Part shown: one piece after another, positions 51,159-56,887 of the stretch
Numbering within the stretch: position 1 is the stretch's first letter
Layout of the letters: each line of letters opens with the position of its first letter
Origin: Escherichia coli
Lineage (GTDB): Bacteria; Pseudomonadota; Gammaproteobacteria; Enterobacterales; Enterobacteriaceae
Assembly (NCBI RefSeq): GCF_029227855.1
Contig: NZ_CP074356.1
DNA: 64,000 bases
Reading direction: 5' to 3' (one strand)
The notes under the pieces: generated by a model
The model's input: only the letters and a program-made list of their open reading frames with translations
Databases searched by the model: none
What the model was told of the DNA's origin: nothing
Position numbers and translations under genes: made by a program

Positions 51159-51437
51159 CTGCAGAGCAAGCAATTCGGTTGTTGGCAAGTCAAGGGCAAA
51201 GCATTCGCGTGAGAATGGGCGTATGCTTTGTGCCAAAAGCAAACGTTGCTAATTCTGCACTGTTCAGCGATGGCGCAGTAGAGACAGGCACTGCCACTGT
51301 CCAGTCGGCAAAAGCGAACACTTTGCCACTGCGGGGATAAACTGATTGAAGCTCTCGCGCAAAATCACTTATTCTTTTGCGTTAATAAAATGTAGGAGAT
51401 GGGTCATTGATCCTACCCACGTAATATGGACACAGGC

Positions 51438-52304
51438 CTAAGCGAGGTTCTTGTTTTCAAATTGTTCCGGACTGAGGCCGCCACACCAACTGTGCCGCCG
51501 CCACCGATTGTAATCACATTCGATATAATTAAACACCGTTGCCCGCATTATTTCCCGGCTGATAAAGTGTTCTCCATGGATACATTCCACTTTCAGCGAA
51601 TGAAAGAAGCTTTCCACGCAGGCATTATCGTAGCAGCAACCTTTTGCGCTCATACTTCCACGCAGATTATGCCGCTTCAGTTGCGCCTGATAATCTGCTG
51701 AACAGTACTGGCCTCCACGGTCCGTGTGAACGATAACGTTCCGGGGCCTCGTACGCCGCCACAGCGCCATCTGCAGGGCATCGCAGGCCAGTTGCGCCGT
51801 CATGCGTGGCGACATTGACCAGCCAATAACGGCACGTGACCACAGGTCAATGACCACTGCCAGATACAGCCAGCCTTCATCTGTACGTAAGTACGTGATG
51901 TCTCCTGCCCACTTCTGGTTCGGGCCACTGGTGTAAAAATCCTGCTCCAACAGATTTTCTGATACAGGCAGGCCGTGTGCGCGGTAGCTGACCGGGCTGA
52001 ACTTCCGGGAGGCCTTTGCCCTCAGTCCCTGACGGCGCAGGCTTGCCGCCACGGTTTTTACGTTAAAGGGGTAACCCTGAGCACGCAGTTCATCCGTCAG
52101 GCGTGGGGCACCGTAACGCTGTTTTGACCGGGTAAAAGCCGCGAGGACAACGCTGTCGCAGTGTTGGCGGAACTGCTGACGCGTGCTTATCCTTGTCCGC
52201 CGCTGACACCACGTATACCAGCCGCTGCGGGCCACCCGGAGCACGCGGCACATTGCTTTGATGCTGAACTCAGCCTGATGTTTTTCAATAAAGACATACT
52301 TCAT
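51438..52304 (-). CDS. insF: IS3 transposase OrfB
   Basis: 288 aa, [30 protein letters not shown]…. Confidence 0.9.
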
Positions 52305-52600
52305 TTCAGGCGCTTCGCGAAGTATGTCGCGGCCTTTTGGAGGATAGCCAGCTCTTCATCCCGTTCTGCCAGCTGGCGTTTGAGACGTGCAATCTCGGTA
52401 GACATCTCCAGTTCACGTTCAGAAGACGTCTGCTGATTTTGCTGTTTACTGCGCCAGTTGTAGAGCTGTGATTCATACAGGCTGAGTTCACGGGCTGCGG
52501 CAGTAACACCGATGCGTTCAGCAAGCTTCAGGGCTTCACTGCGAAATTCAGGCGAATGCTGTTTACGGGGTTTTTTACTGGTTGATACTGTTTTTGTCAT
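52301..52600 (-). CDS. insE: IS3 transposase OrfA
   Basis: [31 protein letters not shown]…. Confidence 0.9.
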
Positions 52601-52666
52601 GTGAGTCACCTCTGACTGAGAGTTTACTCACTTAGCCGCGTGTCCACTATTGCTGGGTAAGATCAC

Positions 52667-56887
<4,221 letters not shown>

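Follow-up and report, generated by a model that had tools for sequence, protein, structure and literature searches.

A canonical IS3 in the start codon of a truncated acuR gene at the margin of a leuX-associated island of Escherichia coli

Within the 64,000-nucleotide stretch of E. coli DNA analyzed here (the window), an IS3 element is flanked by copies of the trinucleotide CAT, the right-hand one of which supplies the AT of the start codon of a gene that breaks off after 68 codons against the end of another insertion sequence. The arrangement is very probably a canonical IS3 lying in the start codon of acuR, what is left of that gene being a pseudogene stub disrupted twice, in a graveyard of insertion sequences. 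The features of the locus, and the evidence by which each was placed, are as follows.

51294-51404, plus strand: 5' non-coding region of acuR, including AGGAG, cut off from its gene; contiguous with the ATG in IS3-free genomes
51405-51407: left CAT target-site duplication; direct reading and the single CAT at the empty site
51408-52665 (1258 bp), minus strand: complete IS3; inverted repeats and identity to K-12 IS3A
51408-51446 and 52627-52665: IRR and IRL of IS3, respectively; repeat search
51438-52304, minus strand: IS3 orfB, InsF-like, 288 aa, DDE integrase core; Pfam rve, rve_2 and HTH_21
52301-52600, minus strand: IS3 orfA, InsE-like, 99 aa, ATG at 52600; Pfam HTH_Tnp_1, E 5.7e-10
52666-52668: right CAT target-site duplication; direct reading, its AT forming the acuR start codon with G52669
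52667-52870, plus strand: acuR', codons 1-68 of 218; TetR_N, NCBIfam AcuR and alignment to 027_SK3
52870-53301, minus strand: remnant of IS100 (IS21 family), its right terminus TGTCAACG... abutting acuR nt 204; alignment to a complete IS100 copy
52936-53301, minus strand: 3' part of istB in the IS100 remnant; Pfam IstB_IS21, E 3.4e-43, profile positions 152-238 of 238
From 53349: IS629; ALIL frameshift pseudoknot at 53685-53801
54145-56414: group II intron inside IS629; reverse transcriptase/maturase ORF at 54801-56324 and Rfam Intron_gpII domain V/VI at 56328-56414

An earlier, sequence-only reading of this DNA had named the element IS3, and its length of 1258 bp, inverted repeats, orfA/orfB pair and 99.7% identity to K-12 IS3A bear out that name. 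By direct reading, the element starts TGATCCTACCC... at 51408 and finishes ...GGGTAAGATCA at 52665, so that its ends are TG...CA (TGATCC... and ...AGATCA, respectively), and the 39-nt terminal inverted repeats recovered by a repeat search are imperfect (72% complementary). The two reading frames overlap at 52301-52304 and have the lengths of their K-12 counterparts (orfA, 300 nt, as insE1; orfB, 867 nt, as insF1), with Pfam E values for orfB of 1.6e-27 (rve), 4.8e-22 (rve_2) and 1.8e-12 (HTH_21). Compared with IS3A of K-12 MG1655, the identity is 99.68% over 1255 nt, with four base differences, and RefSeq names an identical copy in strain M217 an ‘IS3-like element IS3 family transposase, programmed frameshift’. 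The element thus has the properties by which the IS3 family is recognized, namely a length of ~1.25 kb, TG...CA inverted repeats and near-identity to the reference IS3; two consecutive, overlapping ORFs, an orfA with a helix-turn-helix (HTH) and an orfB with a DDE/rve core, for which fusion by a -1 frameshift is predicted; and a 3-bp direct target duplication, within the family range of 2-4 bp. It shares length, ends, 39-nt inverted repeats, rve transposase and 3-bp duplication with the K-12 element (IS3 family, IS3 group; insE/insF), from which it shows no difference of substance. Judged by its sequence, the element at 51408-52665 appears to be IS3 itself, and intact.

IS3-family elements transpose by a copy-out/paste-in route via a circular intermediate that leaves direct repeats of 2-4 bp, and the circle and its junction promoter have been described (PMC3299598). 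The anatomy of 51408-52665 fits this route completely, the mechanism itself being taken from the literature. Elsewhere in the window, the 238 bp at 32146-32383 match the IRL-proximal end of IS3 at 89% identity and are probably a terminal piece of a related element of that family.

The insertion site can be read directly from the window and from its empty counterparts. CAT stands on both sides of IS3, as had been claimed, and the right-hand copy does contribute to the ATG of the stub, which lies at 52667-52669. A Shine-Dalgarno sequence, AGGAG, is found at 51394-51398, on the far side of IS3 and 7 nt 5' of the position that the ATG had before insertion, which agrees with the earlier placement of the ribosome-binding site across the element from the gene. 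The start codon and this Shine-Dalgarno sequence are confirmed by an 85%-identical ortholog with different neighbors, since its DNA homology to the window begins at 51294 and it keeps AGGAG, the 7-nt spacer and CATGAC in the same register. Together, IS3 and the duplication place 1261 bp between the acuR ATG and both its Shine-Dalgarno sequence and all upstream DNA.

By joining the two window flanks through one CAT, an empty-site query was constructed and searched in 5426 complete E. coli genomes. This synthetic IS3-free junction matched complete genomes in one piece at 99.5-99.9% identity, and the pre-insertion sequence that the sequence-only reading had predicted, AGGAGATGGGTCATGACAGGCG, occurs verbatim in IS3-free members of the set; the sequence around the CAT at the empty site reads ...AGGAGATGGGTCATGACAGG.... 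In strain STO_Bone1B the flanks are identical to those of the window (left 303/303, right 301/301) and overlap by exactly 3 bp, which are CAT (locus positions 6506-6508), and a single CAT is present at the empty site in loci L001 and L009, the latter from strain 027_SK3. The comparison with IS-free alleles that had been proposed as a check was therefore made, and no allele with a different junction was seen. A 3-bp flank match alone has a chance probability of 1/64, but this is irrelevant for the CAT duplication because the empty-site alleles carry a single CAT. The exact position of IS3 at the start codon is a positional coincidence and implies no different mechanism.

The gene behind IS3 had been described as a TetR-like ORF, and this holds at the level of the family (TetR_N), while the gene can be named more exactly as acuR, with 68 of its 218 codons left. 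The open frame of the stub comprises 72 codons, as it runs past 52870 to a stop at 52883-52885 inside IS100 sequence. Pfam TetR_N matches its residues 25-66 (E 1.3e-10), so the HTH is complete, and the NCBIfam AcuR model NF051457 gives 88.5 bits over profile positions 2-65 of 204, the cut-off of 247 not being reached by this fragment. Used as a protein query, the 72-aa stub retrieved nothing but fragments, none of them above 124 aa. The notion that the stub has no full-length parent was dismissed through a frameshifted ortholog, in which a TetR_N part is followed by a TetR_C_13 part and by a convergent medium-chain reductase gene; a DNA query made from this ortholog recovered an intact acuR in ~640 E. 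coli genomes. RefSeq names the full-length gene acuR, acrylate utilization transcriptional regulator. In 027_SK3 the order is BCCT transporter, DUF2254, acuR (657 nt, 218 aa), convergent acuI, IS1, amino-acid/polyamine antiporter and decarboxylase; its AcuR scores 266.6 bits against the NCBIfam equivalog cut-off of 247, and the neighboring AcuI (acrylyl-CoA reductase) 478.6 bits against a cut-off of 440.

The stub is identical to the 027_SK3 gene at 201 of 204 nt (98.5%). One of the three differences, T>C at 52847, changes residue 61 in the HTH region from F to L; F61L is found in truncated alleles whether or not they carry IS3, and none of the four intact acuR alleles compared has it, a pattern that would fit either relaxed selection or a common ancestor of the truncated alleles. 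The match to full-length acuR goes no further than gene nt 204 (window 52870), so the 3' truncation of the regulator that had been claimed is real. Beyond that point the 027_SK3 locus, acuI included, has no match within the 64-kb window, and the TetR_C_13 ligand-binding/dimerization domain, missing from the stub, is seen only in orthologs elsewhere. By sequence, then, the window holds a fragment of the acuR gene and not a member protein of the AcuR/TetR family. RefSeq accordingly describes the stub in M217 as a TetR/AcrR regulator that is ‘incomplete; missing C-terminus’; some RefSeq records still call it as a 72-aa CDS.

In Rhodobacter sphaeroides, acrylate relieves the repression exerted by AcuR, a TetR-type repressor (PMC3017554); for the homolog on the E. 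coli island, the literature yielded no experiment. Compared with the R. sphaeroides acuR-acuI-dddL system (PMC3017554), the window has a match to the AcuR model but only 68 of 218 codons, and acuI is absent from it. The intact E. coli loci also differ from their Rhodobacter counterpart, in that acuI is convergent to acuR and not co-transcribed with it, and in that E. coli acuR has a Shine-Dalgarno sequence whereas the Rhodobacter acuR operon is leaderless (PMC3017554).

The right-hand boundary of the stub was fixed by aligning the IS100 terminus (TGTCA...) with L014, which holds a complete IS100 copy, and with L012, an unrelated plasmid context. The complete copy diverges from its flank exactly at TGTCAACG, which starts the remnant at 52870, with a 1-nt ambiguity as T52870 is common to acuR and the IS100 end. 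A boundary at 52867, suggested by a plasmid context that shares TGC, was ruled out by the same complete copy. As istA and the other IS100 end are absent and istB is partial (RefSeq: ‘IS100kyp family helper ATPase IstB, missing N-terminus’), the IS100 here is a fragment.

To the right of IS629 and its intron lie a degenerate integrase and then tRNA-Leu(CAA) at 58230-58314, and the site is the IS-rich margin of a leuX-associated genomic island. Decaying tRNA-leuX islands of E. coli show the same nested and truncated insertion sequences, degenerate integrase and tRNA-Leu(CAA) border, so nothing is unusual here; adjacent deletion mediated by insertion sequences is also part of their decay, and sister genomes examined here show IS3-mediated deletion of neighboring genes.

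Several further observations concern this margin. The 432-bp IS100 end fragment (435 bp with the flanking TGC) and its 48-bp spacer, window 52870-53348, are also found on ETEC IncF plasmids, one locus of which (L012 2501-3709) carries virK and astA and has a ~720-bp extra insert that interrupts the shared piece; the chromosomal island margin and the ETEC IncF plasmids thus have one mosaic piece in common. A 655,459-bp E. coli replicon filed as a plasmid (AP026530.1 / NZ_CP128951.1) also matches the acuR'-IS100' region (52840-53360) at 100%; it is unusually large for that label, and the matching DNA is chromosomal island DNA elsewhere. The ~2.27-kb group II intron insertion is absent from STO_Bone1B and present in M217. 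To the left of the IS3 locus, 36095-41545 carries the fec (ferric dicitrate) operon, recognized because the segment matches DNA annotated as fec in M217; in M217 this segment is inverted and lies downstream of the IS629/intron region, the islands being otherwise 99.9% identical, which points to an IS-associated rearrangement between the two islands.

The distribution of these alleles was obtained from junction-specific DNA queries over the 5426 complete E. coli genomes.

Intact acuR without IS3: ~640 genomes
Truncated stub joined to IS100, without IS3: 40 genomes
Right IS3-acuR' junction, the arrangement of the window: 193 genomes
Left DUF2254-IS3 junction: 287 genomes

The empty-site query itself returned 686 genomes, a figure that mixes intact and truncated IS3-free alleles, as intact acuR covers 89% of that query. 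Both IS3 junctions are found in 193 genomes, so the insertion is an inherited polymorphism and not an assembly artefact. The left junction alone is present in ~94 genomes (287 versus 193), for which deletion of acuR-acuI was judged from two inspected members. In these two, 503025 and CFSAN061761, the IRL of IS3 runs, with no CAT in between, straight into the interior of an IS1 (L003/L010 8440-8480), the one that lies beyond acuI in intact loci, and acuR, acuI and most of IS1 are deleted; a fusion of this form is the signature expected of an IS3-mediated adjacent deletion of acuR-acuI. CFSAN061761 also carries two copies of an lpxM - IS3-family - BCCT - DUF2254 module (L010 and L011; 3.04 Mb and 4.31 Mb), one with IS3 and the acuR-acuI deletion and the other with intact acuR and a truncated reductase gene, and the lpxM-BCCT-DUF2254 module is evidently mobile or duplicated between islands.

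In the history proposed for the locus, acuR would have belonged to an accessory module (BCCT transporter, DUF2254, acuR, acuI) of the leuX-associated island. A canonical IS3 would have transposed into the CAT that overlaps the acuR start codon and duplicated it, thereby rebuilding the ATG at the right junction, parted by 1261 bp from its Shine-Dalgarno sequence and upstream DNA, and acuR would have been fused at codon 68 to the end of the IS100 remnant, with loss of the rest of acuR and of acuI. The outcome would be a pseudogene stub amid IS3, IS100', an IS629 with its group II intron, a degenerate integrase and tRNA-Leu.

As to the order of the two lesions, there is roughly an even chance that the truncation preceded IS3. 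The element may have hit an already dead gene, because the same truncated stub without IS3 is present in 40 genomes. An ordering that is possible, though it falls short of probable, has IS3 arriving first, before an intact acuR, thereby silencing the repressor and perhaps being selected to derepress AcuR targets, with the IS100 truncation and the acuR-acuI deletion following later. Such a sequence of events would account for the ~94 genomes with an identical left junction, the two inspected among which look like products of deletion from an IS3::acuR-acuI-IS1 arrangement, and it agrees with three left-flank SNPs (49479T, 50444T and 51282A) that are common to truncated, IS3-carrying and deleted alleles and absent in three sampled intact alleles. 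However, none of the 5426 complete genomes contains IS3 followed by acuR beyond nt 204, as searched with a synthetic query, and the 40 genomes with the acuR'-IS100 junction but no IS3 would then need a precise loss of IS3 or recombination. Derepression through loss of AcuR is also not evident, because acuI is convergent to acuR and the two share no operon.

The difficulty for any single order lies in how the junctions are shared: truncated alleles with and without IS3 have the IS100 junction in common, the IS3-truncated and deletion alleles have the IS3 junction in common, and deletion alleles keep DNA that truncated alleles have lost. To explain all of them requires one of two things, either a second insertion of IS3 in the same orientation at the same CAT, or recombination via an intermediate in which IS3 preceded an intact acuR. 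That the same junction occurs in two right-hand contexts that are not interconvertible by one step could mark the CAT at the acuR start as a hot spot for IS3, with separate hits of one orientation in truncated and intact island backgrounds; this is unlikely, as the IS3 copies of the two contexts differ by one base only and the same left-flank haplotype in both fits identity by descent plus recombination. In a broader version, which we would likewise not expect to be correct, this CAT would be a recurrent or selected target of IS3, at which an intact repressor was silenced at least once and different deletions were then seeded in each lineage. If true, the locus would offer a small natural case in which an insertion sequence knocked out a regulator and the island module then underwent reductive evolution.

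Expression of the present stub is improbable. The sequence 5' of its ATG is now GGGTAAGATCAC, with no Shine-Dalgarno sequence, and a fusion ORF running from IS3 into the stub was discarded on account of an in-frame TAA at 52658-52660. A crude consensus scan of 51100-53000 found no sigma-70-like promoter on the plus strand, hence none pointing out of IS3 toward the stub, and also missed the native acuR promoter; so crude a scan would leave room for weak read-through that starts inside IS3 and runs antisense to its transposase genes. In the junction promoters of the IS3 family, the outward -35 element is in IRR, and IRL carries the inward, transposase-promoter half. It is IRL that faces the stub here, IRR facing the DUF2254 side.

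The sequence-only reading had proposed that the insertion uncouples the regulator from its promoter. Separation from the ribosome-binding site and from all upstream DNA stands, while the promoter itself was not located by the consensus scan. Such uncoupling has no foreseeable consequence in this genome, because only 68 of 218 codons remain, no TetR_C domain is present and acuI is missing. TetR proteins need their C-terminal domain to dimerize, to bind DNA and to bind ligand. Because the stub does not have this domain, we infer that it is silent and functionless, and that the IS3 insertion is neutral in its present context, a neutrality that depends on the order of the two lesions. The retained ATG, the open 72-codon frame and the complete TetR_N HTH might instead suggest that an IS3 end drives the stub as a small DNA-binding or dominant-negative peptide. 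This is very improbable given the absence of a Shine-Dalgarno sequence and of a plus-strand promoter in the scan, the orientation that turns IRL and not the outward -35 toward the stub, the loss of the domain for dimerization and DNA binding, and the occurrence of F61L only in truncated alleles among those compared.

It is important to point out that the IS3, acuR' and IS100' features belong to well-known families that RefSeq has already annotated in hundreds of genomes, and that together they represent ordinary gene decay. Within these bounds, the locus is a clean textbook case of IS3 target duplication, and its empty site can be read in hundreds of genomes. The 72-aa CDS that some RefSeq genomes annotate as an intact ‘TetR/AcrR family regulator’ corresponds to the first third of acuR and is to be treated as a pseudogene. 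The polymorphic insertion, which is present in 193-287 of the 5426 complete genomes, could in addition serve as a lineage marker. The locus also illustrates the decay of a leuX-associated island at its margin, by nested insertions of IS elements and by the deletions that they mediate.
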